Shown: piece by piece, positions 40 through 14,331 of the stretch
How positions within the stretch are numbered: position 1 is the stretch's first letter
How the letters are laid out: every line of letters begins with the position of its first letter
From: Candidatus Xenobia bacterium
Lineage (GTDB): Bacteria > Vulcanimicrobiota > Xenobia > Xenobiales > QWHO01
Reading direction: 5' to 3'
Length of the DNA stretch: 64,000 nt
Assembly (NCBI GenBank): GCA_045863235.1
Contig: BTUM01000038.1
Span: forward strand, 1 to 64,000
Made by a program: the position numbers and the translations under genes
Notes under the pieces: generated by a model
Told to the model about the DNA's origin: nothing
What the model saw: the letters and a program-made list of their open reading frames with translations, nothing else
Database searches by the model: none

Positions 40-55
40 TGCTCATTACGAGTGA
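40..55. repeat. att core, left copy
   Basis: 16/16 identity to 14289-14304; spans the 7-nt anticodon loop, a classic tyrosine-integrase crossover site. Confidence 0.85.
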
Positions 56-147
56 TTCTCAGGGCCGTGGAAGGGCGTAGAAGGTTCTCCCGCTTTTTCC
101 CGTCCCGTCTAGGTTTCCGGCCTTCTGGCTTGAACTATTTTCCCGGC

Positions 148-209
148 TTTTGCGGCCCTTTTTCCCCCTGTCGGGCCGCAAATTTGGCGCAACGCGTGGT
201 TAAGCCATT
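148..209. promoter_or_regulatory. Putative integrase arm-type / accessory binding sites, left arm
   Basis: TTTTGCGGCCC (148-158, inverted), GGGCCGCAAAT (173-183) and GGTTAAGCCATT (198-209); the same motifs recur at 14146-14188. Confidence 0.65.
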
Positions 210-214
210 TCTGG

Positions 215-1387
215 CTAGACGGCTCGCAAACCGAGGCGCTCAGCCATTTTCTCAGCCGCCGTCTTCTGCTCGTCCTGGACAAGCTGGACGTAGGTGTCCA
301 TGGTGAAGGCCGTGCTGGCGTGGCCGAGGCGGTCCGCCACGACCTTCACGTTCTCGCCCTGGGCCAAGAGCTGGGTGGCATGACTGTGGCGCAGGTCATA
401 AACCCGCGTGGTAGCCGGGAGCCCGGCCCTCTGGATCAGGGGCTTGAAGTAGCGGTTCACAATGTTGGAGTGGGTCATGGGCTCGCCCTTCTGGCCGGCG
501 AACACGAAGCCGTGGTCAGCATACTCCTCGCCGAAGAAGGCCTTCTCCTCATCCTGCCGGGCCTGGTGGCCGCGCAGGAGGGCGAGAACGGGAATCTTGG
601 GCACGGGGATGGTTCGGCGGGAGCGGGCCGTCTTTGGGGCCTCCAGGCGCCAGGGGGGGCCGTTCCCGGCCTTCCTGGCTCGAACCAGGACCTCTTCCAC
701 CCGGATGGATGCATGGTCCCAGAGCACGTTCTGCCACCGCAGGCCGAGCAGTTCTTCGGGGCGGCAACCAGTGAACACCAGGGCGAACCAGAGGGCTGCC
801 CACCTGTCCTCACGCGCTGCACCCAGGAAGGCCTCGAGCTGCTCGAGCGTGAGGGCCCGAATCACCGGCTTGCGGCGGGCGGTTGGGAGCTCCACGTCTG
901 AAGTAGGGGCATAGGCCAGTTCTCGCCACTTGCAAGCCTGCGTGAGGGCACTGTGCAGGATGACGTGCAGGCGCCTGACCGTGCCCGGAAGCAGGGGGCG
1001 GCCGGTCAGTTCGCCGGAGAGCATCTTCAGGTAGAGTTCTTGGAGCATCATCGGTGTGAGCCGCTTCAGGCTGACGCCGCCAAGATGAGGGATGATGTAG
1101 CGCCGCAGGGTTTCGGCATAATCCTCAGCCGTGCGGACCGACACCCGGGGCCTGGCCGCGACCTCCAGCCACTTCTCCAGGTAGGCTGCCAGCGTGGTTT
1201 TCGTGGGCTTCACGACCCGACCTGTTTCAAACTCCTGCAGTATCTGCCGCAACCGCGTTTCGGCGCCTTCTTTGGTGCCGTGGAACGTCTCGGATGACCG
1301 CTCCCGCCGGCCTGTCAGGGGGTCCCGTCCAAGGTCCCACCGGAGTTCATAGCTGCCGTTTCCCCGCCTTCTGACGCGCCCTTTCAT
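215..1387 (-). CDS. int: Tyrosine integrase (phage/ICE type with N-terminal arm-binding and SAM-like domains), ~390 aa
   Basis: Motifs TGCRPEELLGL, APKT, YDLRHSHAT, LGHAS, MDTYV. Start taken as ATG 1387 (MKGRVRRRG), overlapping the upstream stop (ATGA). Confidence 0.93.
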   Translation of the reverse strand: MKGRVRRRGNGSYELRWDLGRDPLTGRRERSSETFHGTKEGAETRLRQILQEFETGRVVKPTKTTLAAYLEKWLEVAARPRVSVRTAEDYAETLRRYIIPHLGGVSLKRLTPMMLQELYLKMLSGELTGRPLLPGTVRRLHVILHSALTQACKWRELAYAPTSDVELPTARRKPVIRALTLEQLEAFLGAAREDRWAALWFALVFTGCRPEELLGLRWQNVLWDHASIRVEEVLVRARKAGNGPPWRLEAPKTARSRRTIPVPKIPVLALLRGHQARQDEEKAFFGEEYADHGFVFAGQKGEPMTHSNIVNRYFKPLIQRAGLPATTRVYDLRHSHATQLLAQGENVKVVADRLGHASTAFTMDTYVQLVQDEQKTAAEKMAERLGLRAV

Positions 1388-2064
1388 CGTTGAGCCTCCT
1401 TCTTCCGATTTTTGAACGCCCCGACCCTGCAGCGACCGCTGCAGTAGAGCTTGCCCTTCCCCTCTGCCTTCGGTGGTATCTCGAAAGCCCCGCCGCAGTA
1501 GGTGCACGTCCCGAAACCCCGGTTCTCCGTGATCGCATCGAGGAGCTGGAGCCACAGTTCCCCCCGCAGGTTGTTTGCCGCGAAACTCCGGCGCCAACCC
1601 TGCCCCGTCCACTCGAGCGTCATCCCGACATGGTTGCGGATTCGGGCATTCACGACCTCAGCCAGGGCCGGCTTTTCCTCCGAATCGCCGCTGCTGAGTG
1701 TCGCCAGGGCTGCTCGCATGTCGTTTATCTCCGCCGGCCAATCAAGGTGCGTGGCTTCCCGCTGGAGCAGGCATCCGCTTTCGTCTTGCAGGTGCCCGAG
1801 CAGACCGTAGCGATTCGCGAAGGCGAGATAGGCCTCATTCGCTTCACGCTGGCCGACTTCCGGCCAGACCGGCAACCGCGAGAACTCGAGATAGGTGCCC
1901 GGCGGTATGGCCACCTGTTGACCCCGCTCCCGGCCATCACGCGGGACGAGGAACGCCGCCTCGGTAACGGCCGGCATATCAGTGTCAGGGATGAGCTTGT
2001 AGCCGCTCGCCGGCCGCCCCCAAACGAAGCGGGGCTCCCCCGCTGTGGAAATGCTCCTAGTCAA
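1384..2064 (-). CDS. CGNR-type zinc-finger protein, putative regulator
   Basis: C-terminal CxxC...YCSxxCR followed by a basic tail (CTYCGGAF...LYCSGRCRVGAFKNRKK); TTG start with AGGAG RBS; coupled to int. Confidence 0.65.
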   Translation of the reverse strand: MTRSISTAGEPRFVWGRPASGYKLIPDTDMPAVTEAAFLVPRDGRERGQQVAIPPGTYLEFSRLPVWPEVGQREANEAYLAFANRYGLLGHLQDESGCLLQREATHLDWPAEINDMRAALATLSSGDSEEKPALAEVVNARIRNHVGMTLEWTGQGWRRSFAANNLRGELWLQLLDAITENRGFGTCTYCGGAFEIPPKAEGKGKLYCSGRCRVGAFKNRKKEAQR

Positions 2065-2191
2065 TTTGTCCTACTCCTTCCTGGTATTTTCGTTTGTAAC
2101 GGACAAGTAACGTATATCCGTTCTTGACCACTACGGGAAAGTCCTCTATGCTTGTTTCGGAAGCTGAAAAAAACTCAAACGGAGGATAGAG

Positions 2192-2407
2192 ATGATGATG
2201 ACACAGCAAGCCCCCATGCGGCCTCTGGTGCGCGTCCGGGAGGCGGCCGCTCTGTTGGGCGAATGCCAAAAGACGACCTACGAGCGGGTGTGGCGAGGCG
2301 AGTTCCCTGCGGGCGTCGTGATCAGGCTCGGGCGGCAAATCCGGTTCGACCCTGAGCGCCTGGCCGCGTGGCTGGCCGCCGGTGGCACCGCCAGCCGGCA
2401 GGTGTAG
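2192..2407 (+). CDS. Excisionase / AlpA-like HTH DNA-binding protein
   Basis: LVRVREAAALLG..KTTYERVWRGEFP..IRLGRQIRF pattern; GGAGG RBS; divergent from int. Confidence 0.85.
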   Translation: MMMTQQAPMRPLVRVREAAALLGECQKTTYERVWRGEFPAGVVIRLGRQIRFDPERLAAWLAAGGTASRQV

Positions 2408-2408
2408 C

Positions 2409-3122
2409 ATGAGGCCAGATATGACGCCGCCCCCGGGGTCTGACGGGCCCGGGGGCGGTAGAGGAGACTCTACCGCCAGTATAGCATTCCTGCGCTGGCT
2501 CTGGCAACCCGGCGAGGTGCGAGAGCTGCGGACCCTGGGCGACTGCCCGCCCTGCACCGGCTACTTTGATGGCCCCGAGGGGCTCCTGGCTGCAGCCCTG
2601 GCCGCCGGCCGTAACCCGGCCGTCAGAGGCGTCTACCTCAGCCTCAACCCGGTGCTGCCCGAGCTGATGGGGCGGGCCGCCAACCGCTTGCGCCAGGCCA
2701 GCCGGGGCGAATCAACCAAGGACCATGAGATCGTCCGCCGCCGGGTGCTGCTGCTGGACGTGGATCCGGTCCGGCCCGCCGGCATCAACGCCTCGCACGC
2801 CGAGCACAAGGCCGCTCACGACCTGGCCGCCGTCATCCGGGAGGACCTGGCCGCCGCCGGCTGGAGCGAGCCGGCCGTGGTGGACACCGGCAACGGGGCC
2901 GCCCTGTGGTATCCGGTGGACCTGCCCGCCGAGGACGATGGGCTCCTGCACCGCTGCCTGCAGGCCCTGGCAGCCCGGTATGACACCGACACCGCCCGGG
3001 TGGACGTGGCCGTGGCCAACGCCTCCAGGATCGCCCGCCTGCCCGGCACCGCCAACCGCAAGGGCGACCACCTGCCCGACCGCCCGCAACGGCCCTGCCG
3101 GGCCCTGGAGGTGCCAACATGA
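2409..3122 (+). CDS. Archaeo-eukaryotic primase (RepB/Prim-Pol-like catalytic domain)
   Basis: LLLDVD (DxD motif), DTGNGAALW, RIARLPGTANRK. Start ATG 2409 (2421 also possible). Confidence 0.8.
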   Translation: MRPDMTPPPGSDGPGGGRGDSTASIAFLRWLWQPGEVRELRTLGDCPPCTGYFDGPEGLLAAALAAGRNPAVRGVYLSLNPVLPELMGRAANRLRQASRGESTKDHEIVRRRVLLLDVDPVRPAGINASHAEHKAAHDLAAVIREDLAAAGWSEPAVVDTGNGAALWYPVDLPAEDDGLLHRCLQALAARYDTDTARVDVAVANASRIARLPGTANRKGDHLPDRPQRPCRALEVPT

Positions 3123-4360
3123 GGCCCGTGCAGCGTGAGCTGCTCGAGGCCCTGGCCGGGCCCACCAAAGCCAAAGAGCAGGCCCTGGAAGGCAACAGCG
3201 AGGGCCTGGCCCGGGCGAGAGCCTACGCCGACCGGGTGGACGCTGCCCGGGCCGGTGATAGGAACAACGCCGCCTACCGCCTGGCAGCCAAGCTGGTGTG
3301 CGACTTTGACTTGCCGCCGGGAGAAGCGCTCGCAGTCCTGCGGGAGTGGGCCGCCCGGTGCTCTCCGCCGCTGGAGGAGGCCGAGCTGGCTGCCACCATC
3401 GAGCACGCGGCTCGCTATGCCGACGGAGAGCGAGGCAGCAAGCTGACTGCGGCATCGCCCGCTCGCCCCGAGCCTACCCGCCCCGAGCAAGCTGCTCGAG
3501 CGCCCTGGGTGCCCATGCCCGAGGTGCTGGCCGACCTGGCCGAGAGGTATCGCTCGGGCCGGGAGCGGGAGGGCTACGTCACGACCGGCCTACGGCTGCT
3601 GGATCAGGCCACAGGCGGGCTCGGGCCCGGGCAACTCGTCCTCCTCGGTGGCCGCCCCGGCGAAGGCAAGTCTGCTCTGGCGCTGGACATCGCTCGGCAC
3701 GTCTCCCGAGAGCACGGCCCGGTGCTGCTGCTATCGCTCGAGATGAGCCGGCTGGAGGTTGCCGGCCGGGTGGTGCAGCAACACACCCAGCTCGGTGCCG
3801 ATCACCTGGATGCTGGGCGGGTGGAGAGCGTGATCAGCGCCTACCCCCGGCTCTGCATCGCTGACGAGGGCTCGAGCCTGGATGAGGTGCTCTCGCTGGC
3901 CGACAGCTTCCGGCGAGCACACCCTGACGCCGCCCTCATCATCATCGACTATCTAGGGCTCATCTCGCCCCGCAACGGCCCGCAGAGCCCGTATGAGCGG
4001 GTTTCGGCAGTCGTGCGAGCCCTCAAGACCCTGGCCCAGAGTCTGCACCTGCCGGTGATCGCCCTGGTGCAGCTCCGCCGCCCGCCCAAGGGCAAGCAGG
4101 ATGAGCCGCCCGACCTGACCGACATGCGGGACTCTGGCGAACTGGAGCAAGCCGCCAACAAGGTGCTACTGCTGCATTATCGTGGCGCCGCCACCCAGGG
4201 GCCCCGGACTGTCAGGCTGCTACTGGCCAAAAACCGCGAAGGCGGCAAAGCCAGTATTGACCTGCATTTCCAGCCGGCGACCGTCTCGATGCACACCATC
4301 GAGCCCCGGCCCGAGCCCCGCTCTGGGCTCGATCCTCCGTATGAGGAGCTGCTACTGTGA
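3119..4360 (+). CDS. PriCT-like domain fused to DnaB-family replicative helicase
   Basis: N-terminal GDRNNAAYRLA...W...CSPPLEEAELAATIEHA (PriCT-like); Walker A GGRPGEGKS, SLEMS, IIDYLGLI, DMRDSGELEQAAN, LAKNREG. Confidence 0.88.
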   Translation: MRPVQRELLEALAGPTKAKEQALEGNSEGLARARAYADRVDAARAGDRNNAAYRLAAKLVCDFDLPPGEALAVLREWAARCSPPLEEAELAATIEHAARYADGERGSKLTAASPARPEPTRPEQAARAPWVPMPEVLADLAERYRSGREREGYVTTGLRLLDQATGGLGPGQLVLLGGRPGEGKSALALDIARHVSREHGPVLLLSLEMSRLEVAGRVVQQHTQLGADHLDAGRVESVISAYPRLCIADEGSSLDEVLSLADSFRRAHPDAALIIIDYLGLISPRNGPQSPYERVSAVVRALKTLAQSLHLPVIALVQLRRPPKGKQDEPPDLTDMRDSGELEQAANKVLLLHYRGAATQGPRTVRLLLAKNREGGKASIDLHFQPATVSMHTIEPRPEPRSGLDPPYEELLL

Positions 4361-5004
4361 GCCGCCGGCCGAATACGGGGCCATTCTCACGGGTCCCGAA
4401 CCCGCTGGCCGAGGCACTGGCAAGGACCGACCTTTCGAGCCGCGAGCACCGCGTGGTGTGGGTATTTGTGCGGCAGATCCTGGGCTGGAAAGAGCGGCGC
4501 GAGACCAACCGCCTGGCCATCGGGCGGGGCGAGCTGGAGGCCCTGACGGGAATCCATCGAGCCGACCTGCGGACCACGGTAGGGCAGCTCCTGGAGCGGG
4601 GGATTCTCCGCCGAGCGGAAAGCCCGGGAAACGCAAAAAATGCACCCCCAACCGAGTACATTTTTGTGACCAATCCAAAGCACTGGAAGGGCCTGGTTAA
4701 GCCGGAACGCGCGCAGGGAGGTGGAGGCCACCCCACCTCCACCCCCCTGGAGGCCACCCCACCTCCTGGAGGCCACCCCACCTCCACCCCTGGAGGCCAC
4801 CCCACCTCCACCCCCCTGCCGAAAAACGGCGCAACCACGCGCCGCGCTCGAGGCCCCTTAGAAACCTTAAAGAAAGGTGTACTCGAACCCGATACCCCCA
4901 ACGCTGGCAGCACCCCTGGAGGTGTGCTGCCGCAGGGACGTGCTGGTAGTACCGACTGGCCCACCCTGCGCCGTCCCACCACCGACGAGGAGGAGATTGT
5001 ATGA
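4357..5004 (+). CDS. Lambda O-like replication initiator (N-terminal winged HTH) containing iterons
   Basis: FSRVPNPLAEALARTDLSSREHRVVWVFVRQILGW resembles the phage replication protein O N-terminus; intragenic direct repeats. Confidence 0.75.
   Translation: MSRRPNTGPFSRVPNPLAEALARTDLSSREHRVVWVFVRQILGWKERRETNRLAIGRGELEALTGIHRADLRTTVGQLLERGILRRAESPGNAKNAPPTEYIFVTNPKHWKGLVKPERAQGGGGHPTSTPLEATPPPGGHPTSTPGGHPTSTPLPKNGATTRRARGPLETLKKGVLEPDTPNAGSTPGGVLPQGRAGSTDWPTLRRPTTDEEEIV
4722..4809 (+). repeat. Four iterons TGGAGGCCACCCCACCTCC (putative replication origin)
   Basis: Exact 19-bp copies at 4722, 4748, 4767 and 4791, followed by an A-rich tract at ~4857-4875. Confidence 0.85.
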
Positions 5005-5708
5005 CCGCCACCGCCACTCCAAGCCGCCTTCTTCAAAATGAAGGCGTCGTTACTATCTTGCGTTCAGCACTGGGGGAAGCCGATGGATTGGCTAACATCC
5101 CTGGGCTCCTGAAGCGCACCATCGTAAACGAATGCTGGCGCATTCGGCAGTGTGACATTTCAGGCCGAATCTACGAGTTCCGCACCTTCGAGGAGTTCGT
5201 AGATGCTCTGCCGCTCGAGGGCCTGGGCTCATCCATGGCCCAGCTCCGCGACCTATGCCGACGGGACCCCGAGGCCCTCGACCTGCTCGACAAGGTGACG
5301 CAACGGATTGGAGGGCGGCCAGCCAAAGAGGAGCCAACTGAGCCTTACGCAGAGGAAGCCGGGCCGAGAGAAACCTTTGACAGTGTCAAAGGTTTCCCGG
5401 AGGTTGCCCCCGTCGCCCTGGCTCCGACCGGCAACTCCTGCGCTGCCGCCCTGCGCCGGCTGCGCAAGGACCGGCCCGACCTGCACGCGGAGGTGCTGGC
5501 TGGCAACAAGAGCCCACACGCTGCCATGGTGGAGGCCGGGTTCCGCCGGAAGAGCATCAGCCTGCCCCGCGACCCGGAGCGCATGGCGCAGGCTATCGAG
5601 CGCGTGTTCAGCCTGGAGGACATGAAGTGTCTCGTCGATTCTTTGGTTGACGCGATACGCAAGAGATGCGGGGAGCCGGTGAACCCTGGAGGCATGGGCC
5701 ATGGGTAG
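5001..5708 (+). CDS. Phage-type putative DNA-binding protein
   Basis: Coupled ATGA start; GNSxAAALRRLRKDRPDLHAEVLAG..S.HAAMVEAG resembles a motif of phage/satellite DNA-binding proteins. Confidence 0.65.
   Translation: MTATATPSRLLQNEGVVTILRSALGEADGLANIPGLLKRTIVNECWRIRQCDISGRIYEFRTFEEFVDALPLEGLGSSMAQLRDLCRRDPEALDLLDKVTQRIGGRPAKEEPTEPYAEEAGPRETFDSVKGFPEVAPVALAPTGNSCAAALRRLRKDRPDLHAEVLAGNKSPHAAMVEAGFRRKSISLPRDPERMAQAIERVFSLEDMKCLVDSLVDAIRKRCGEPVNPGGMGHG
5370..5396. repeat. Perfect palindrome GAAACCTTTGACA-G-TGTCAAAGGTTTC (putative operator)
   Basis: 13-bp arms, 1-nt centre, AT-rich within a GC-rich ORF. Confidence 0.7.
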
Positions 5709-5982
5709 CCGCCCGCCGCGCCGCCGCAGAGGGCCCTGGCAGCCACTGTGGGAGCCGCTGCCTACCGGGCCAGCCGAGGAGAGCCTGCGGCAGATCGCCA
5801 GCGAGGAGGGCGTCAGCAAGAATACTGTTGCGCGTGCGCTCTCCAGCGTTCATTTGTCCCAAAATGGGACAAATGAACACGACATCCCTGCGCCTGCTCC
5901 CAAGGTTGCAGCCCCGCCAAATTGCCACGGAAAACTTTCCCAAAACGTGACACAAATGGGCTCTCTGCAACGACACAGCTAA
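5701..5982 (+). CDS. Small HTH protein
   Basis: SLRQIASEEGVSKNTVARAL helix-turn-helix. Confidence 0.6.
   Translation: MGSRPPRRRRGPWQPLWEPLPTGPAEESLRQIASEEGVSKNTVARALSSVHLSQNGTNEHDIPAPAPKVAAPPNCHGKLSQNVTQMGSLQRHS
5848..5878. repeat. Perfect palindrome GTTCATTTGTCCCA-AAA-TGGGACAAATGAAC (putative operator)
   Basis: 14-bp arms, 3-nt loop, immediately after the HTH-coding segment. Confidence 0.7.
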
Positions 5983-6007
5983 CGATTCGTGTTATATTGG
6001 AGGTGCA

Positions 6008-6244
6008 ATGAAAGTCTCTCAACCTCGCCGGAAACCCACGAAAACCTGGTGCTCTCTGCGCATCGAGCCCGCCCAAGATGAGGCAATCTCTGCCCTGGCT
6101 GCGGACCTCGGTGTGACGGAGAGCGAGGCTGCCAGGAGAGCTCTGGCCGCCGGACTGGCCCTGTTGTACACGGATAGAAGCAATACCCAAGAATGGGCCC
6201 ACAGTATCATCCGCACCCTGGAGAAAGCCTGGAAACCCGCATGA
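6008..6244 (+). CDS. Small ribbon-helix-helix/CopG-like protein
   Basis: SLRIEPAQDEAISALAADLGVTESEAARRAL pattern; GGAGG RBS; TGTTATATT extended -10-like motif just upstream. Confidence 0.6.
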   Translation: MKVSQPRRKPTKTWCSLRIEPAQDEAISALAADLGVTESEAARRALAAGLALLYTDRSNTQEWAHSIIRTLEKAWKPA

Positions 6245-7233
6245 ACACGAAAGACTTTCCCCCTGTGCCCCTGGAGAAGAGCGCCGCTCTGGACGAGAAG
6301 GCACGCACCGTGCAGGCCATCGTTACCGCGTCGGTGCCTGATCGCGATGGCAGCATGATTCTGGCCACGGGGGTGGACCTGGAGGCCTACAAGCGTAACC
6401 CCGTGGTGCTGTGGCAGCATGACCGAGGCCTGGCTGCCGGCCCGGCGTCGGCTATCGGCCGCTGCCTGGAGATAGGGTTGACTGCCGACAAGCGAGCTGT
6501 GTCGGCCCTCATCAAGTTCGCCGAGGGAACCGCTCGAGCCGATGAATGCTGGTCCCTGGTCAAGAACGGCTACCTGACCGCGTTCTCTATCGGGGCCATC
6601 TTGCGCTCGCAGGTCACCCGCTGGGCGCCGCGACGAGAGCTGGATGCGCTGCCCGCCTACGCCCGCGAGGCCCTGACGGCCGGGGCCGTGGACTCCGTGA
6701 TCACCGGGGCCGAGCTGGTGGAGGTGTCGCTGTGTCTGGTGGGCTCCTGCCCGGCCGCTACCATCGCAGGTGGCCCGCTGACGGCTCGAGCTGCCACCGC
6801 CAAGCCCCTGGCTGCCCCCCGCAAGACTGCCCCGCCCGTGGCCGCCAGCACCGTGGCCAGCGACCGCGAGCACCTGCAGGCCATCGGTGCCGCTCTGGGC
6901 GAGCACCTGCAGGCCGACTACCACGCTCGGCGGCCCCGCCTCGGCCAACGAGAGGCCCTGGCTGCCTGCCGCCGGGACCTGGCCGTGGATCCAGAGCCCC
7001 TGATCGCCAGGGCCCTGGCCGGCCCGCCCCGCCAGCGCTTCTGGAACCCGCTCGAGCCACGGCAGAAGCCGCCGAGCGGCATCGCCGCCGACGAGAAGGT
7101 GCTGCGTGCTATCGGCTCGCGCCTGGCCTCCGAGCTCGAGCAGGCCTACGCCGGCTTCGACCGGCGACTTGACTTAACCCTGGCGGCCCTCCAGGCCGCA
7201 CCCCGCCGCTTTACCGAGCGAGCACTACGATAG
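6241..7233 (+). CDS. HK97-family prohead protease with long C-terminal extension
   Basis: DRDG, YKRNPVVLWQHD (His), AFSIG (Ser), ELVEVSL (Glu); ATG 6241 overlaps the previous stop. Confidence 0.85.
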   Translation: MNTKDFPPVPLEKSAALDEKARTVQAIVTASVPDRDGSMILATGVDLEAYKRNPVVLWQHDRGLAAGPASAIGRCLEIGLTADKRAVSALIKFAEGTARADECWSLVKNGYLTAFSIGAILRSQVTRWAPRRELDALPAYAREALTAGAVDSVITGAELVEVSLCLVGSCPAATIAGGPLTARAATAKPLAAPRKTAPPVAASTVASDREHLQAIGAALGEHLQADYHARRPRLGQREALAACRRDLAVDPEPLIARALAGPPRQRFWNPLEPRQKPPSGIAADEKVLRAIGSRLASELEQAYAGFDRRLDLTLAALQAAPRRFTERALR

Positions 7234-7247
7234 GAGAGTTACGTCCC

Positions 7248-7787
7248 GTGCTGAAAAACCTACTCAAACCCAAGTCCAAAGCCGAAATCACCGCCCTCGA
7301 GGAGCGAGCCGCCATACTGCGAGCCGAGCTGAACGAGGTGACCGAGAACAAGGCCGCCTCTGTGGCCGCCCTGGAGGAGCTGCAGGCCCGCGAGCAGGCC
7401 GCCCGCCGCCAGGCTCAGGCCCTGCGCCAGGAGGCCGGCCTGGCCGTCTGGGCCGCTCGGCTGCCCGACCTGCACGGCCCGGAGGAGGCCATGGCGGAGT
7501 GGGCTCGCCGCCTCGATGAGGCTATCCTGGCCCTGGTGCCGCTGGTCCAGGAGGGCCTGCAGCACCGCCGGGCCCTGGCCGAGGTGCATCGCGCCCTGGG
7601 CGAAGTGCGCCAGGAGTGGGGCCTCGATACCGAAGTGCCGCCGGCCAGCGTGCCTGCCGGCCTTGAGGTGGCCGCCTGGATGCCGGACGGGAACCCGATC
7701 CTGTCGGGAGGCCTGCCCGACCTGGTGGCCAGCCGGGTGCGCCGCCTGCGGCTGGATGGCCGCTGGCCCGGTGGAGGTGCGCTGTGA
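7248..7787 (+). CDS. Hypothetical coiled-coil protein
   Basis: GTG start with GGAG RBS; Ala/Glu/Leu heptad-rich; coupled to the next ORF. Confidence 0.65.
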   Translation: MLKNLLKPKSKAEITALEERAAILRAELNEVTENKAASVAALEELQAREQAARRQAQALRQEAGLAVWAARLPDLHGPEEAMAEWARRLDEAILALVPLVQEGLQHRRALAEVHRALGEVRQEWGLDTEVPPASVPAGLEVAAWMPDGNPILSGGLPDLVASRVRRLRLDGRWPGGGAL

Positions 7788-8287
7788 GCCCCGTGCGCCA
7801 CCAGGACCGATACGGCTCGAGCCCGCTCCCGTTCGAGGAGGCCATCGCCGACGACTTGACTACTCTGGTGGCCCGCACCCGCGAGCAGGTGGCCGAGCGC
7901 CGCGCAGAGCAGGAGCAGGCTCGCCTGGCTCGCTATGCCAGCCGCTCTGAGCATGTTCGGCGACTGACCGACCTGGCCACCGTGCTGGGCTCGACCGCCA
8001 GGCACTTGCACGCCGTCTACGTCCTGCGAGCCATGGGTGTCGGCTGTGGCTACAGCCAAGACATGGCCCGTGACCATGCCGGCGAGCTGACCGGCGTGGT
8101 TGTCAAGGTGGGCCACGAGTTCGAGGCGAGCCAGGGCGAGGAGTGTCGCCTGACGTGGGACGGCTCCTCTTACTGCCTGGACGGCCAGGCCCTGGGGACA
8201 GACGACCCGGAGGCCGTGATCGCCCCGCTGGCCGCGCAGGTGGCCGAGATGGCCAAGGCCTACGCCTCACGGCGGCTGAACCAGTGA
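7784..8287 (+). CDS. Hypothetical protein
   Basis: GTGA overlap with the upstream stop, GGAGG RBS, GC3-biased codons. Confidence 0.6.
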   Translation: MSPVRHQDRYGSSPLPFEEAIADDLTTLVARTREQVAERRAEQEQARLARYASRSEHVRRLTDLATVLGSTARHLHAVYVLRAMGVGCGYSQDMARDHAGELTGVVVKVGHEFEASQGEECRLTWDGSSYCLDGQALGTDDPEAVIAPLAAQVAEMAKAYASRRLNQ

Positions 8288-8481
8288 CCCCCGGCCCGCT
8301 CGAGCAGGCCCGCGCCATCCTGGCCCGCTGGGCTCACCAGCAGGCTCTACTGTTGGCCGCTGACCAGCAGGCCTACATGGCCAGCGGGCAGGTGAGCCAG
8401 GCTGGCATCGCCGACCTGGCCCGCCGCCGCGACTCGATTGCGAGGCTACTGCCAGACAAGCTACTACTACAGGAGGATTGA
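8284..8481 (+). CDS. Small hypothetical protein
   Basis: GTG 8284 overlaps the previous stop; fills the gap to the next RBS. Confidence 0.5.
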   Translation: MTPGPLEQARAILARWAHQQALLLAADQQAYMASGQVSQAGIADLARRRDSIARLLPDKLLLQED

Positions 8482-8482
8482 T

Positions 8483-9013
8483 ATGGATACCACCGCAAAA
8501 CTCGAGGAAGCCCGGGCCGCCCTGGCTCGAGCTTCCTCCATGACCGAAGAGCAGGCCCGAGCCCGAGCTGCCGAGCTGTTGGCCGCCGCCGAGCTGCGTG
8601 AGGAGCAGGCTGCCCTGGCCCGTCGCGTGAGCGAGCTCGAGCTGGAAGCCCTGCGGGAGAACATCCGGCAGGCCGCCGCTGCGATGCCCGACTTGGTGGC
8701 CGAGCGCGATCAGGCGCTGGCCCGCCTCGATGCCGCCCTGGCCGACCTGCGGCCACGGCTCGAGGACCTGGCCGAGAAGGAGGCCGCCATCACAGCGCAC
8801 TGGGCCACCATGGGCACGGCCTGCGATGCCGCTCGGGCCCGGGGCATGGCGCTCGAGGCTGCCGGGGATAGCACGCTCATCCCGCCCTGCCCGGCGCCAG
8901 TGTTTGCGCTGGCCAGCCCGAGCGAGGTGGCCGGGCCTTTCGGGGCCGCTGGCTTCCTGGCACGGCGCATCATGGCGATGCGAGAGGCCGGATCCTGGCC
9001 GGCAAGACTGTAG
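8483..9013 (+). CDS. Hypothetical coiled-coil protein
   Basis: AGGAGG RBS then ATG 8483 (MDTTAKLEEARAAL); long helical segment. Confidence 0.65.
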   Translation: MDTTAKLEEARAALARASSMTEEQARARAAELLAAAELREEQAALARRVSELELEALRENIRQAAAAMPDLVAERDQALARLDAALADLRPRLEDLAEKEAAITAHWATMGTACDAARARGMALEAAGDSTLIPPCPAPVFALASPSEVAGPFGAAGFLARRIMAMREAGSWPARL

Positions 9014-9235
9014 ACCACGGGACGGACGCCCGGTCCAACGGGCCGGCCGGGACTCTCCCCCGGCCGGCCCTGCGGGCCACCTTCCGAGCCCAGAGGCCGG
9101 GGGGGTCCGCGGTCCATTCCCGGAGGGCGCAGGGGGCAGGGTGTATGCTCAGCCCCCATACAAAATCAACGGGTTTTCAGGAAGCGCTCAATTTCGAAAC
9201 TTTCGAAACGGCCGCCCTGATGAGGTGAGGTGACC

Positions 9236-12200
9236 ATGGCTGATGAGATTCAAGCGGTACTCGAGCTGAAGGACGGGCAGTTCACTGCAGGGCTCGAGCG
9301 AGCCGGCGCTGCCCTGAAGAGATTCGAGGCGGGCTCAGAGGGCACGTTCAGCAAGCTGGGGGACGTCCAGAACCGCCTGAAAGGCATCGACTTCTCGGCC
9401 GCGTTCGATGGCGCCGCCGACGCCGGCCGTCAGCTCAGCGAGCTGGCCCGCTCCGGGGCCGGCATCATCGGCGGTTTTCTGCGAGCCTCCAGCGAGGCCG
9501 AGAAGTTTCGGATCACGCTGAACAAGCTCGAGGGCGGTTCCGTGGCCGGTGCCGCCGCCTTCGAGAAACTCCAGACCTTCGCTGGAACGACCACTTTCGA
9601 GCTGCCGGGCGTGGTCCAGGCCGGCGTGCAACTGCGCACCTACGGGCAGAGCATCGACCGATTCCTGCCGCTCGCCGGCGACCTGGCCAGCGTGTTCAAC
9701 CGCGACATCTCGGATGCGGCGCAGGCCCTGGGCAAGGCTCTTGCCGGCAGCCAGGACGGCATCCAGATTCTCCAGGATTCGTTCGGCATCACGAAGCGGG
9801 AACTGGTTGCCGCCGGAGCCACTATGAAGAGCGGGGGTGGCATCGCCGTGGACACGGCCGCCGACCTGGAGAAGCTCGCCAAGGCCATCGAGAAGGTATC
9901 CAAGCAGAAAGGCTTCGCTGGAGCGCAGAAGGACCAGCTCAGCAGCCTGGCCGGGCAGTATTCCCAGCTTTCCGACGCCGTGACGAAACTCCAGACCGCC
10001 TTCGGGGACGCCCTGGCGCCAACCGTCAAAAATGTGGTTGTGAGTCTCACCGGGCTCCTCAACAAGTTCAACGAGCTGAGCCCCCGCACGAAGGAGCTGG
10101 CCGCGAAAGGCCTGGCCGTGGGAACCGCCCTGGCTGGCATTGGCGGCGCCGCCCTGACCGCTGGAGCTGTCATCGGCCAGGGCGTCATCGGGCTGCAGAA
10201 GATGGGCGAGGTGCTGGGCAAGCTTCCCGGCGCTGCCGGCCTGGCCTCCAGGGGGCTTGCTGCGACGAGGGCCGCCGCCGTGGCCCTGGCTACTCCGCTC
10301 GGGGCGGTTATCGCCGTGGTGGCTGGCGTGGCCGTGGCCTTCCACCAGTATACCGAGAGCATCAAGGAGAACACCGCTCAGACCGAGGCCTGGTTGAAAC
10401 TCGCCGAACGGGTCGGGAGCTTTGCGCGCGACGCTGGCCAGCTCTTTGGGAAGACGGCTCAGGAGATTGTCGCCGCCGGGACCTCCTACGAAGAAGCCAC
10501 CCGTGCCATGCTGGTGGCCCAGCAGAACCTCGAGCTGGCCCAGAAGGAGTTTGGGGACGGAAGCGACCAGGCGAAGCGCTGGCAGGCCGAAATCGACAAC
10601 CTGCGCACCGCGCGCAACGAGATCAACCAGAATCGGGCCGCAACCGAGAAGGCCGCTCAGGCCGCCAAGAACAGCGCTGATGCCTATGCCGCAGGCGCAG
10701 AAGAGCGCAAGAAGGCCGCCCAGGACGCCCTGAAGGGCGAGCTTCACGCCCTGAACACGTCGAAGAAGAGCGACGAGGAGCGACTGGCTGCCCTGCAGCA
10801 CCTGGCCGCCCGCTACTCAGAATTGGGCGACGAGCGCAAGTCTCTTGAGCTGGAGATTTTCAACCTGCAGCAGAAGGTGGACCAGGCCGCCATCCAGCGA
10901 GCACAGGAGCGCCTGGCCCTGGAGAAGCGAGCGATTGACCTGCGACTTGCCGGGCTTCAAGACCAGGCGAAAGCCGGTCTAGACGTGGACCGGCAGTCCG
11001 CTCAGGCCATCAAGGACCGAGCCCGAGCCGAAGAGGCTGCCATCCGTTCCAGACTCAAGAGCGACCTGGCCGGCGAGAAGAACCCTGATTCTCGGGCCAA
11101 CCTGGAGCGAGCCGCTCAACTCGACCTGGCTCAGGCTCGCCAAGAAGAGCAACGAGCGCTCCAGGCCCTGGAAGCCGAAGGTGCCTCCCGGGCCCTGGCC
11201 GCCCTGAAGGAGCAAGCCCAGCTTGATCGCGACCGCCTGAGCATTCAGAAGGACGCCGTTGACCAGCGAATCGAGGGCCTGCGCCGCGAGCAGGACATGG
11301 GGAGAGATGTTCACGAGGAGCTGAAGGCTGCCATCCTGGAGCGCCAGAAACTGGCCCAGCAGGCCGCCCAGAAGGCCTTCCAGGTGGAACTGGCCGACGA
11401 GAAGGACCCGGGCCGCCGAAGGCAACTGGAGCGGAATTTCGGGCTCGAGCAGAGCAACCAGGGTGCCGCCGACCGCCGGGAGCTCGAGGACCTCGAGCAG
11501 GGTGCCGCCGACGCCGCTCGGGCCCGGGCGCTCGAGCAACTCGACCTGGAGCAGTCCATTATCGACCTGCGCGAGAAGGCCCTTCGTGATGACCTCGATG
11601 CCGGCAAGAAGGTGGAGGCCGCCCTGAAGCAGGCGATTCTCGACCGCCTGGCTCTGACCGAGGAAGAGATTCGGGTTCGGGCCGACGCTGCTCGCGCCGC
11701 CACCAGCGATTCCCGCGAGCTGGCCCTCATCGAGCAACAGACCCAGGGACTCATCTCTGAAGCTCGCAGGAACGCGAAGAAGGAGGTTGACTCCATCACT
11801 GGCGCCCTAAAAGAGCAGAAGGCCGCCCAGGACGCCCTGGCTGGAGTGGGCGAGATTCAGAGCTTCGAGCAGTTCCTCCAGGGGCAGGCCGCTCAGTTTG
11901 GCATCGAGGCGACCCGGAAGCGCATCGCCGAGCAGAAGGCCGCCAACCGTAGCCTGTCCTTTTCGGCTCCGCCGCCAACGCCCGAGCTGCCAAAGGGCGA
12001 ACAGGTGCGCCGCGCCGCCGCCACGCCCGACCCTGGCCGCCTGGAGGCATCGAGGGAGGCAGCACGTTCTCAGGCTCGAGCTGTCGCCCAGGTTGAGGCA
12101 CAGGCCCGGGCCGAGCGAGAGAAGCCTGCCGGGTCCTCCGTGGGCCGGGTGGAGGTGCTGGTGGGCGTGGACCCCGAGAACGGGAAAATCCGAATCGAGG

Positions 12201-12295
12201 ACACCCAAACCGAGGTGACCGCCAACGGCCGCGGCTCGAGCTTCGAGCTGGTGGCTGGAGGCCTCTCTCCGCGCGCCAACACCGGGAGCTTCTAG
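9236..12295 (+). CDS. Phage tail tape-measure protein (~1019 aa)
   Basis: N-terminus ADEIQAVLELKDGQFTAGLERA; tape-measure core (FEKLQTFAGTTTFELPGVVQAG; SLAGQYSQLSDAVTKLQTAFGDALAP); hydrophobic Gly/Ala segments; long coiled coil. Confidence 0.85.
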   Translation: MADEIQAVLELKDGQFTAGLERAGAALKRFEAGSEGTFSKLGDVQNRLKGIDFSAAFDGAADAGRQLSELARSGAGIIGGFLRASSEAEKFRITLNKLEGGSVAGAAAFEKLQTFAGTTTFELPGVVQAGVQLRTYGQSIDRFLPLAGDLASVFNRDISDAAQALGKALAGSQDGIQILQDSFGITKRELVAAGATMKSGGGIAVDTAADLEKLAKAIEKVSKQKGFAGAQKDQLSSLAGQYSQLSDAVTKLQTAFGDALAPTVKNVVVSLTGLLNKFNELSPRTKELAAKGLAVGTALAGIGGAALTAGAVIGQGVIGLQKMGEVLGKLPGAAGLASRGLAATRAAAVALATPLGAVIAVVAGVAVAFHQYTESIKENTAQTEAWLKLAERVGSFARDAGQLFGKTAQEIVAAGTSYEEATRAMLVAQQNLELAQKEFGDGSDQAKRWQAEIDNLRTARNEINQNRAATEKAAQAAKNSADAYAAGAEERKKAAQDALKGELHALNTSKKSDEERLAALQHLAARYSELGDERKSLELEIFNLQQKVDQAAIQRAQERLALEKRAIDLRLAGLQDQAKAGLDVDRQSAQAIKDRARAEEAAIRSRLKSDLAGEKNPDSRANLERAAQLDLAQARQEEQRALQALEAEGASRALAALKEQAQLDRDRLSIQKDAVDQRIEGLRREQDMGRDVHEELKAAILERQKLAQQAAQKAFQVELADEKDPGRRRQLERNFGLEQSNQGAADRRELEDLEQGAADAARARALEQLDLEQSIIDLREKALRDDLDAGKKVEAALKQAILDRLALTEEEIRVRADAARAATSDSRELALIEQQTQGLISEARRNAKKEVDSITGALKEQKAAQDALAGVGEIQSFEQFLQGQAAQFGIEATRKRIAEQKAANRSLSFSAPPPTPELPKGEQVRRAAATPDPGRLEASREAARSQARAVAQVEAQARAEREKPAGSSVGRVEVLVGVDPENGKIRIEDTQTEVTANGRGSSFELVAGGLSPRANTGSF

Positions 12296-12301
12296 CGTGC
12301 T

Positions 12302-12535
12302 GTGATTGAGGTGATCGTTCGCGAGGAGCCCGGTGGCAAGCGCTCAGTGGCAGCCCGCTCGAGCCGCCCGCTCCGCCCGGCCGAGCGCAGGCTCCTGGAG
12401 GACGTGGTGCGAGCGCATCCTGGCCGGCAGGCATGGGACCGTGCAGGTGTCGTCGTCACCGGACTATGGGCCCATCCAGCCCGGAAGCTAGTTCGCGACC
12501 TGGCCGCCGCTCTGGGGCTGGAGCTGCCGGCCTGA
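12302..12535 (+). CDS. Small hypothetical protein
   Basis: 77-aa ORF directly after the tape-measure gene on the same strand. Confidence 0.45.
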   Translation: MIEVIVREEPGGKRSVAARSSRPLRPAERRLLEDVVRAHPGRQAWDRAGVVVTGLWAHPARKLVRDLAAALGLELPA

Positions 12536-12563
12536 AGGTTCCCGCCCAGCAGCTCGAGCCTCG

Positions 12564-12583
12564 TTTGACACTTTTGTGTCAAA
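12564..12583. promoter_or_regulatory. Palindrome TTTGACAC-TTTT-GTGTCAAA overlapping a TTGACA -35-like hexamer
   Basis: 8-bp arms; shares the TTTGACA half-site with the 5370-5396 palindrome; lies upstream of the last two element genes. Confidence 0.5.
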
Positions 12584-12756
12584 GGAACCGCCCTGGCAGG
12601 CCAAGAAAAACGCCGGACGCCCGACATGAAAACGGGCCCCCTGGCCGATCCCCCGCTAAGAGAACCCGACCAGGAAGCCACGCCGTGCCGTTCCGTGCAT
12701 GTGCTTTGCTTTCCTTTCTGTCGCTGGTTTGCCGGCCAGGGCGAAAGGAGAGAATC

Positions 12757-13233
12757 ATGACCGTTACACCCCTCCCGCTCAGGCCGATTCCTCACCGCGA
12801 TCCCCGCGTGGCTGCCGCCTACCATCGCATGCTCGAGCTCCTGGCCGGCTCGAGCTATGAGACTCATCCCGCCGTGCGGGAGGCTCGCCGGCTCGCAAGC
12901 CACCAGGCAGGTGACTCCTGGGAGTGTGCTCTCCGCTGGCCGCTCCCGGATTGCGCCCTGGAGGACCCGGACCGAGGCGTCCATGGCGAGCTGCTCACCC
13001 TGCTGGCCGACCCGCCGGACCTCGAGGCGCTCGAGCGCCATTTCCCTGACTGGCCGAACCGGTGGGAGGGGCTGCAGCAACGCGACCAGGGCATGAGGCT
13101 CGCCCGAGCCCTGGCTGAGTATGTCCGGCTGACCGAGCGGATCCGCCCGTCCGCTCCCGACCGGCTGCCGCTGACCCTGGCCCGCCGCCTGGAAGCCGCC
13201 ATCCTGGCAGAGGTGGAGGAGGTGCTGCCATGA
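12757..13233 (+). CDS. Hypothetical protein
   Basis: AAGGAG RBS then ATG 12757; coupled to the downstream recombinase. Confidence 0.6.
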   Translation: MTVTPLPLRPIPHRDPRVAAAYHRMLELLAGSSYETHPAVREARRLASHQAGDSWECALRWPLPDCALEDPDRGVHGELLTLLADPPDLEALERHFPDWPNRWEGLQQRDQGMRLARALAEYVRLTERIRPSAPDRLPLTLARRLEAAILAEVEEVLP

Positions 13234-14138
13234 GCGAGGCCCTGCGGGATGCGATCCACCGCTACCAGGCCCAGAGCGCGCCCAGCAAGCTCCAGACCGC
13301 CAGCAAGGGGAAGGCTTACCGAGTCCATGCCGCCTATTGGTCCGGGCTTTGGGGTTCCCGCCCCGTGGCCGAGATCAAGCCGTCTGACATCCGGGCCTGG
13401 CAGGCCGAGCTGCTCCGGGCCGGCACCCTGAAGCCTGCCACAATCTACGCCCGGCAAGCCTTCTTGTCGAGCGTTTTCGAGCTGCTGAGGGCCGAGGAGG
13501 TTCTGCAGGCCAACCCCTGCCGCGCCGCCGGTTGGGTCCGGGTGAGAAACGGCAAAACCAGGGTGCTGACCGAGGACGAAGAGGCTCGCTTGCTGGCTGC
13601 CCTGCACCCTGATACCGCCGCGTTCGTCCGCTTCCTGTTGAACACCGGCTTGCGAGCCGGCGAGGGCCTGGCCCTGGAGTGGGGCGACATCCACGAGAAC
13701 CGCGCCTGGATTCGGCCACAGAAGACCCCAAGCGGCAGGCACCTCCCCCTGAACGAGACCGCCCTGGGAATCCTGGCCCAACGCCGCCACCTGGAGCGCC
13801 CTTGGCCTGACGCCTATGTGCTCGTTTCCGGGCGTGTGAGCCGTGCCTGCGCAAAGCTCGGGCTCGAGGGCGTAACCCTGCATACGGCCCGGCATACCTT
13901 CGCGACCCGGCTCCTGCGCTCGGGCGCGAGCCTGCTGCACGTCAAGCGCTGCCTCGGTCACAGCGACTGGAGTATGACCGAGCGGTATTCCCACCTGTTG
14001 CTCGATGACCTCCAGGAAGCCGTGGGCCGGCTCGATGGGCGCTCGGCCCCGGAGGCCCCGGAGGCCCCCGACCTGGCCGCCCTGGTGGCTCAGCTCTCGG
14101 CTCAGGTGGCTGCCCTGACCGCCCGGCTACCAGCGTAA
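13230..14138 (+). CDS. Second tyrosine recombinase (XerC/D-like size, no arm-binding domain)
   Basis: TGLRAGE, QKTPSGR, HTARHTFATRL, LGHSDWSMTERYSH: full R-K-H-R-H-Y catalytic set. Confidence 0.9.
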   Translation: MSEALRDAIHRYQAQSAPSKLQTASKGKAYRVHAAYWSGLWGSRPVAEIKPSDIRAWQAELLRAGTLKPATIYARQAFLSSVFELLRAEEVLQANPCRAAGWVRVRNGKTRVLTEDEEARLLAALHPDTAAFVRFLLNTGLRAGEGLALEWGDIHENRAWIRPQKTPSGRHLPLNETALGILAQRRHLERPWPDAYVLVSGRVSRACAKLGLEGVTLHTARHTFATRLLRSGASLLHVKRCLGHSDWSMTERYSHLLLDDLQEAVGRLDGRSAPEAPEAPDLAALVAQLSAQVAALTARLPA

Positions 14139-14145
14139 ACCGCAC

Positions 14146-14188
14146 GGTTAAGCCATTCTTGGCCTATGGCCGCAAATGGGCCGCAAAA
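14146..14188. promoter_or_regulatory. Putative integrase arm-type sites, right arm
   Basis: GGTTAAGCCATT (14146-14157) and tandem GGCCGCAAAT / GGGCCGCAAAA (14168-14188), matching the left-end motifs. Confidence 0.65.
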
Positions 14189-14226
14189 CCTACTTTGCAC
14201 GGCAAAGAATCGAACAGGAGCCAACG

Positions 14227-14251
14227 AAAAAAGCCCACCGTAGCGGGCTTT
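14227..14251 (-). terminator. Rho-independent terminator downstream of tRNA-Thr
   Basis: Minus strand reads AAAGCCCGCTACGGTGGGCTTTTTT: hairpin plus U-tract. Confidence 0.7.
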
Positions 14252-14256
14252 CAACC

Positions 14257-14331
14257 TGGAGCCGGGGAGGCGATTCGAACGCCCGACCTGCTCATTACGA
14301 GTGAGCTGCTCTACCCCTGAGCTACCCCGGC
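14257..14331 (-). tRNA. tRNA-Thr(CGT)
   Basis: GCCGGGG acceptor stem, D arm, anticodon stem GCTCA/TGAGC with loop CTCGTAA, TTCGAAT T-loop, encoded CCA. Confidence 0.96.

Follow-up and report, generated by a model that had tools for sequence, protein, structure and literature searches.

A tRNA-Thr-integrated element with its own tape measure protein as a probable phage satellite in a Candidatus Xenobia bacterium

We propose a model for a compact element lying in the window, by which we mean the whole 64,000-nucleotide stretch of contig BTUM01000038.1 (here C38; assembly GCA_045863235.1) from an uncultured Candidatus Xenobia bacterium. The element spans 14.25 kb between exact 16-nt attachment (att) cores at a tRNA-Thr gene, and is probably a phage satellite that rides in the particles of a helper siphophage, places its own tape measure protein (TMP) into the tail and likely steers assembly of the head. 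That it is a maintained satellite-type element, whether it enters such chimeric particles or acts as a decoy, we hold with greater confidence. The model draws on the anatomy of the element, its intact frames, the recurrence of its layout and purifying selection on its TMP, all observed directly, from which we infer the hijacking of a helper. As similar islands recur across relatives, we regard the element as a likely parasite of phages that itself makes part of the particle of its helper.

In this model, infection by a helper, or its induction, would turn on the excisionase gene (xis) and the replication genes, and integrase A would excise the element at the 16-nt core. Expression of a late operon headed by a ribbon-helix-helix (RHH) gene would provide a protease-helical fusion and two hairpin proteins, which may act on the helper procapsid as an alternative maturation, scaffold and size-setting set. 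The element TMP would replace that of the helper in a chimeric tail, as in PLE11 of Vibrio cholerae (PMC12987554), probably with the chaperone of the helper, and a second recombinase would resolve multimers. The helpers are likely temperate phages. Tail length, which the initial annotation of this DNA had offered as a purpose of the TMP, is probably not what the exchange serves, since the TMP of 1,019 aa is close to the 1,004 aa of the resident prophage TMP (968-1,636 aa among prophage TMPs); control of the pairing of tails with heads, or escape from an anti-TMP function, is more plausible. This particular copy may be impaired in excision, as an insertion sequence (IS)-like element abuts its left core.

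The att repeat, TGCTCATTACGAGTGA, occurs only twice in the whole 8.36-Mb assembly (166 contigs, the element forming the first 14 kb of C38), and the right copy falls within the anticodon arm of tRNA-Thr(CGT). Short motifs just inside both ends, a 12-mer at 198 and 14146 (5 copies genome-wide) and a 10-mer at 149, 173 and 14178 (49 copies genome-wide), may be integrase arm sites. Scans of the 18 open reading frames (ORFs) of the element against Pfam and PHROGs identified the integration, replication and late genes collected in Table 1, with 12 of 16 gene junctions no longer than 14 bp. Integrase A is 41-57% identical to other island integrases, and its family is found in tRNA-Thr islands of the genus. 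A promoter scan placed a promoter-like site at 2124-2152, ahead of xis, and an extended -10 promoter-like site at 5970-5998, ahead of the RHH gene. The four internal 23-nt repeats of the RepO gene (4718-4809; repeat family D6) are candidate iterons that may serve an origin. The second tyrosine recombinase is without an N-terminal arm-binding domain, its alignment beginning at residue 71 of the 393-aa integrase of the C67 island of the same genome, and is a candidate resolvase.

The TMP frame is unbroken, with no internal stop and one hydrophobic stretch near residues 341-373, and homologues match it at about 90% and 72% across the full length. Compared with the homologue at G003:C287, whose neighbouring gene matches the C72 island of our genome, dN/dS is 0.25 by NG86 and 0.29 by LWL85 over 1,003 codons, and 0.22-0.23 (NG86) in three segments up to residue 905. 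Between two islands of genome G015 that occupy different tRNA genes, it is 0.09 and 0.11 (NG86 and LWL85, respectively) over 1,128 codons. Island TMPs are under purifying selection (dN/dS 0.09-0.29); the initial annotation had named neutral values of the structural genes as a ground for refuting a satellite, and those of the TMP lie well under 1.

The protease, encoded upstream of the TMP gene, shares H60, S116 and E161 with all 53 aligned homologues, and its model aligns with T4 gp21 (Z 12.3, rmsd 2.6, 129 residues aligned). Judged from its catalytic His and Ser and the modelled prohead-protease fold, this is an intact HK97-type prohead protease (S78), with family scores that fall below the curated Pfam and NCBIfam cut-offs. 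The tail, residues 206-329, is modelled as long helices with no capsid domain and is retained in the full-length homologue P0162 (54%); in another assembly, homologues of the protease and of the 167-aa gene (54-57%) have locus tags close to each other. A helical segment of weak similarity follows the protease domain in the C38 element and precedes it in the C72 island (E 0.003). A hidden capsid was considered on the strength of a phrog_617 'major head protein' match covering only profile positions 19-119 of 626, and this reading was rejected because the match is the protease part of a fusion family and the modelled tail is helical.

The two hairpin proteins are paralogues, a third copy lies in the C72 island, and the family is present in 1 of 44 genomes, there only in the C38 and C72 islands. 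The model of the 179-aa protein (pLDDT 68) gave generic hairpin fold matches only, with Z up to 9.5; the fold search returned no viral match at E<=0.001 and no Psu or Sid among the 50 matches listed. Neither protein has a Pfam or HMM match to Psu or Sid. With the 179-aa protein, profile searches against solved structures gave nothing useful, and a homologue search (98-314 aa) found none except itself. The related-locus search for the 167-aa family in genomes and metagenomes found none, and a supposed homology between this protein and a similarly placed 160-aa C72 protein was dropped, as the two could not be aligned.

No capsid, portal or large terminase (TerL) was matched among the 18 ORFs in the Pfam and PHROGs scans, and no BhuB was recognised beside the TMP gene. 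The ORFs left without a name measure 65-235 aa, too short for a whole capsid, portal or TerL. When 204 proteins of 12 prophage stretches were searched by tblastn (E<=1e-3) on 13 small elements, no trace of tube, capsid, portal or TerL was seen, the matches being confined to proteases, chaperones, TMP pieces, primases, one repressor and one 69-aa protein; in viral contigs the same set recovers entire head-tail operons. When 109 ORFs picked from the 29 TMP loci described below were scanned against PHROGs, no capsid and no portal appeared, TerL was seen only in the unclear locus G041:C159, and G007:C2 gave a small terminase subunit (TerS) and, separately, a weak ClpP-like match. These results bear out the initial annotation, which had described a compact element with att repeats, int, xis and a replication module, tightly coupled ORFs, an HK97-type protease with its catalytic His/Ser/Glu, a full-length tape measure and no capsid, portal or terminase; we add the proviso that a divergent TerS could escape such scans. 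As for its concern that a small ORF might fold as a capsid or terminase, two proteins were folded and are neither, one being a protease whose tail is helical and the other a helical hairpin. The second tyrosine recombinase, the paralogous hairpin ORFs and the IS-like end at the left att are additions to its description.

In 44 genomes of the class (Eremiobacterota/Vulcanimicrobiota), searches with two TMP profiles yielded 23 and 6 distinct loci, which were all sorted manually by gene map; the sorting covers incomplete genomes that are related to one another, and TMP families outside the two profiles are missed. Nine of the 29 loci, in six genomes, are att-bounded islands, located at tRNA-Thr, Ala, Trp, Lys, Arg, Sec and Met genes; eight measure 13-18.3 kb and one 26.3 kb, as against 54 kb for the resident prophage. 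Five more are island-like, being cut by a contig end or having no located second att (G003:C287, G015:C273, G015:C56, G041:C898 and G009:C69), 12 are ordinary prophage head-tail regions, and the status of the remaining three, namely a remnant, a TMP next to TerS and TerL, and a 2.3-kb contig, is unclear. Whole TMPs of 958-1,500 aa are retained in eight of the nine complete islands. Homologues are thus not confined to full prophages. A prohead protease occurs in four of the nine, two of HK97 type and two of another family, which we take to be Mu-like, and none was detected in the other five. The core of the class is therefore the TMP and not the protease-plus-TMP pair, which the initial annotation had regarded as the defining set.

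Two further islands share the genome of the C38 element. The C72 island (14.8 kb, tRNA-Ala) has an HK97-type protease (37%), a hairpin gene and a mosaic TMP, the N-terminal half of which is like that of prophage G017:C59 (29% over 645) and the C-terminal half like those of the C38 element and G003, its last 650 residues being 33% identical to the C38 TMP; island-only genes are common to C38 and C72 at 27-37% identity. The C67 island (18.3 kb, tRNA-Trp) holds TerS, a phrog_976 protease, chaperone-like genes, TMP and a resolvase. Three islands have the reverse of the gene order of phages, with the chaperone after the TMP (C67 and G013:C1) or the protease after the TMP (G015:C10). The order of the virion genes is shuffled among the islands, and simple deletion cannot produce such shuffling.

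A number of observations weigh against the satellite model, and several of them would be expected if the element were a decayed prophage, that is, a siphophage that lost its head, tail and lysis genes, keeping TMP and protease as leftovers with the selection from its phage life. Island TMPs do not form one clade. In a tree of 22 of the 25 sequences (C72, G017:C59 and G000:C1 were left out, having no aligned domain) they interleave with prophage TMPs, G015:C10 pairing with prophage G005:C30 and G007:C2 with prophage G017:C57, both pairs starred. We read this as repeated capture and trimming, the route proposed for the late genes of phage-inducible chromosomal islands (PICIs) taken from their helpers (PMC10111431), though decay, occurring repeatedly, would fit as well. 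Prophages G017:C59 and G011:C5 are colinear with the element in having RHH, protease and TMP in that order, the element primase is 59% identical to that of the resident prophage, G001:C192 is a true remnant that retains head genes and a fragment of a TMP, the TMP of one complete island (G019:C69) is split, and the IS-like insertion directly abuts the left core. The dN/dS figures are those of the TMP, and selection measured between intact TMP genes can predate reduction. Nevertheless, we consider decay unlikely in view of the whole TMPs of the other eight islands with no trace of tube, capsid, portal or TerL, the reversed gene orders, the island-only genes of C38 and C72, and the lowest dN/dS being found between islands at different tRNAs.

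Other points concern the fit between the element and a helper. No tail chaperone or TerS was recognised in the C38 element by Pfam, PHROGs or tblastn, from which divergent ones could escape; PHROGs also missed the chaperone-like genes of sister loci. Atlas feature matches of the two hairpin proteins to Psu clusters, 0.87 (173 shared features) for the 179-aa and 0.85 (166) for the 176-aa protein, lie below the atlas bar of 0.9. The sole capsid, portal and TerL genes found genome-wide are those of the 54-kb C1 prophage, whose frames are apparently intact; its protease has no detectable similarity to that of the element (E>=0.05) and its TMP no blastp match above 70 bits, so that the genome has no resident helper that matches. 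The matching protease family (26-35%) is carried by phages G011:C5 and G017:C59, and of these G011:C5 has the closer TMP domain (48% over 222). The C-terminal 90 residues of island and prophage TMPs give the C38 element links of E 0.03-0.05 only; no helper is assigned for this reason. Searches for related loci, with the TMP C-terminal alignment in viral contigs and with the TMP in metagenomes, found none. An identical TMP does lie on a 14,251-bp public contig, which, with an assumed left boundary, is the size expected of an integrated copy cut at the flanking repeats; the contig was rejected as a circle, expected at 14,279 bp, and fits the integrated form.

Instead of entering particles, a satellite or defence island could protect its host as a decoy, a mismatched TMP poisoning tails and the protease mis-processing proheads. 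Interference with tail assembly is a published defence (PMC11364771, PMC10884400), no chaperone was recognised in C38 or C72, and several islands carry little besides TMP (G004:C25). A decoy, however, need not keep 1,000 residues under selection, as all three segments of the TMP are, chaperone homologues accompany the TMP in C67 and G013:C1, and PLE11, a published TMP-bearing satellite, incorporates its TMP (PMC12987554); we regard this explanation as quite improbable. There is very little to be said for the view that the element is one piece of a larger prophage, its head and tail genes lying just left of the contig break, beyond the fact that only 39 bp separate the first base of the contig from the left core. 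The contig breaks at an IS-like end, whose motif (bases 1-42) recurs at 8 contig ends of the genome, and contigs C11 and C33 start with the opposite IS-like end, after which come the displaced 3' half of the tRNA and then a defence-like island and host-like genes. The element is on this evidence closed on both sides, in a tandem array at tRNA-Thr. Genome-wide searches place capsid, portal and TerL on C1 only, and eight sister islands have both of their ends within a contig, all of which largely refutes a larger prophage. The proposal of the initial annotation that a satellite supplies TMP and protease to a helper is thus partly supported, having come through the checks on homologues, TMP dN/dS and the folds of two proteins, with the hijacking itself still inferred.

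Alongside the main loci several further features were seen. The 222-bp G+C-rich gap before the TMP gene (9014-9235) contains several predicted hairpins, about -112 kcal/mol (no shuffle control). In the C67 island, a 218-aa gene after the TMP (L004:3074-3730) matches the chaperone and the next short frame of prophage G036:C235 and looks like a frameshifted chaperone pair fused in frame. The island-like locus at tRNA-Sec in G009:C69 (L150:7085-11812) carries TerS, a chaperone-like gene, TMP and a homologue of the C1 prophage neck/tail-completion gene (32%), and at L112 (G041:C159:1677-8134; contig of 8.3 kb) the TMP is followed by TerS and TerL within ~1.8 kb, unlike ordinary prophages. Of 33 genome loci, 15 outside Vulcanimicrobiota with long flanks were mapped, and most resemble ordinary prophage operons; one planctomycete record (L254:1332-11374), in which a tRNA-Leu, an ORF of integrase size and a short TMP of 528 aa lie within 10 kb, is possibly the same kind of island outside the phylum. 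Between its capsid and head-tail connector genes, the C1 prophage has two genes (L026:15668-17940; G000:C1:171668-173940) whose products, judged by eye, resemble a glycosyltransferase and a polysaccharide-modifying enzyme. In tandem with it stands an 8.2-kb att-bounded element (G000:C1:207015-215225; L006, L028) that carries int, xis, DnaB (64% to the C38 element) and RepO and no TMP, a minimal relative.

The tRNA-Thr site and the IS-like element gave observations of their own. A 43.7-kb island (G000:C11:1-43700; L008-L010), with a related integrase (43%), is seemingly in tandem at the same tRNA-Thr; a reverse transcriptase like those of group II introns lies close to its att, and its large helicase and methylase-like genes resemble defence systems. 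An unassembled IS-like element with a duplicated GCA target explains 19 contig ends, its ends being found at G000 contigs C2, C6, C9, C11, C20, C33, C55, C72, C85, C112, C113, C123, C147 and C165, with further matches at L077:3590-3707 and L066:6298-6337. A single IS-like sequence variant was found in the tRNA-Thr att cores of G000 and of G004, which suggests that the element targets island attachment sites; no transposase was located for it.

Table 1. Features of the C38 element, with positions in the window.
Feature	Position	Strand	Evidence or remark
End of multi-copy IS-like element at edge of left att core; contig break	1..42		End motif shared with other contig ends
Left att core, 16 nt	40..55		Exact match to 14289-14304
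Candidate integrase arm-type sites GGGCCGCAAA, GGTTAAGCCATT	149..209		Recur at 14146-14187; putative role
Tyrosine integrase A, 390 aa	215..1387	-	PF00589 E 4e-20, PF14659
226-aa protein, C-terminal Cys cluster, coupled to int	1384..2064	-	Weak matches only
Excisionase-like helix-turn-helix protein (xis)	2192..2407	+	HTH_17 E 9e-11, phrog_66
Primase-polymerase-like domain	2409..3122	+	phrog_2478 E 2e-6
PriCT + DnaB-like helicase	3119..4360	+	PF03796 E 1.5e-48
Lambda O-like initiator (RepO)	4357..5004	+	PF04492
235-aa protein	5001..5708	+	No family match
RHH protein heading late operon	6008..6244	+	RHH_1 E 0.0013
HK97-type prohead protease (residues ~15-177) fused to helical tail (206-329)	6241..7233	+	phrog_80 E 6e-11
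179-aa helical-hairpin protein	7248..7787	+	Paralogue of 8483-9013; weak Psu-like lead
167-aa protein	7784..8287	+	Homologues at 55-57%
65-aa ORF	8284..8481	+	No family match
176-aa helical protein	8483..9013	+	32% to 7248-7787
TMP, 1,019 aa, intact	9236..12295	+	phrog_1533 E 7e-16
77-aa ORF	12302..12535	+	Weak homologue upstream of TMP in C72 island, phmmer E 0.0012
158-aa protein	12757..13233	+	No family match
Second tyrosine recombinase, 302 aa	13230..14138	+	PF00589 E 2e-24
Right att core	14289..14304		Inside tRNA-Thr(CGT) 14257-14331 (minus)

Among known satellites, capsid-forming PICIs (cf-PICIs) carry their own capsid, portal and terminases, unlike the C38 element, which has no capsid, portal or large terminase match. 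Sid, Psu and TcaP have scaffold roles, and the two long-helix proteins of the late operon, which recall P4 Sid/Psu and the TcaP of PLEs, we take as a lead. In PLE11 the satellite TMP enters virions, replacing that of the helper, and its loss cuts transduction by about 99.9%; tmp and tac are conserved across PLEs, and a tmp is predicted in other Vibrio satellites and some cf-PICIs (PMC12987554). PLEs are like the C38 element in being integrated satellites that encode a TMP with no capsid gene set of their own, and differ in their lytic, contractile-tailed helper; they carry a chaperone and BhuB with the TMP, neither of which was recognised in the C38 element by scans that also missed chaperone-like genes in sister loci; the main text of the paper never mentions 'protease' (PMC12987554), whereas the C38 element has a prohead protease. 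The likeness considered here is one of gene content, between hosts in different phyla. The EPIPs of Mycolicibacterium aichiense are ~11-kb satellites with a TMP, for which altered tail length and smaller capsids were seen by electron microscopy (PMC12822802, preprint). They list TerS, head-tail adaptor, stopper, serine integrase, scaffold and major capsid protein, the text also stating that capsid proteins are lacking (PMC12822802); the C38 element differs in its tyrosine integrases (both PF00589) and protease, and no EPIP-type TerS, adaptor, stopper or capsid protein was matched among its 18 ORFs. PICIs and HE-PICIs resemble it in size (10-20 kb), in their integration, regulation, replication and late zones and in an occasional extra integrase in the late zone, and differ in that their commonest late gene is a capsid gene and in their AlpA signature (PMC10111431), the constant late gene here being the TMP; Phage_AlpA had no match at E<=1 among the 18 ORFs, the gene near int being HTH_17. 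The C38 element thus resembles TMP-bearing satellites and lacks the EPIP, cf-PICI and AlpA-type PICI features tested. Its gene content had seemed unrecognised in the initial annotation, which for the TMP no longer holds, as satellite-encoded TMPs are already published (PMC12987554, PMC12822802). No capsid-less satellite with both a prohead protease and a TMP, and no satellite study in this phylum, was found in our literature search, which did not cover supplements and subscription papers; the preprint 10.1101/2025.02.15.638363 proved to have no bearing on the question.

There is experimental proof from one system (PLE11) that a satellite manipulates tails, and a second (EPIPs) has been suggested to do so. 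With 14 of 29 TMP loci of one class lying in small capsid-less elements, the strategy may be routine and not exotic, and what genome catalogues list as 'defective prophages' with a TMP may in many cases be satellites. Furthermore, the repeated pairing of the TMP with two protease families points to a step of head maturation that satellites may exploit. As a wider and more tentative proposal, the Eremiobacterota might hold a lineage-wide 'ruler-first' guild of satellites about as common as full prophages, which would have captured TMPs repeatedly from different helper types, some adding a matching HK97-type or Mu-like protease-scaffold and Psu-like hairpins, and which would control head maturation and tail identity without a capsid gene, swapping TMP halves among themselves to track their helpers.

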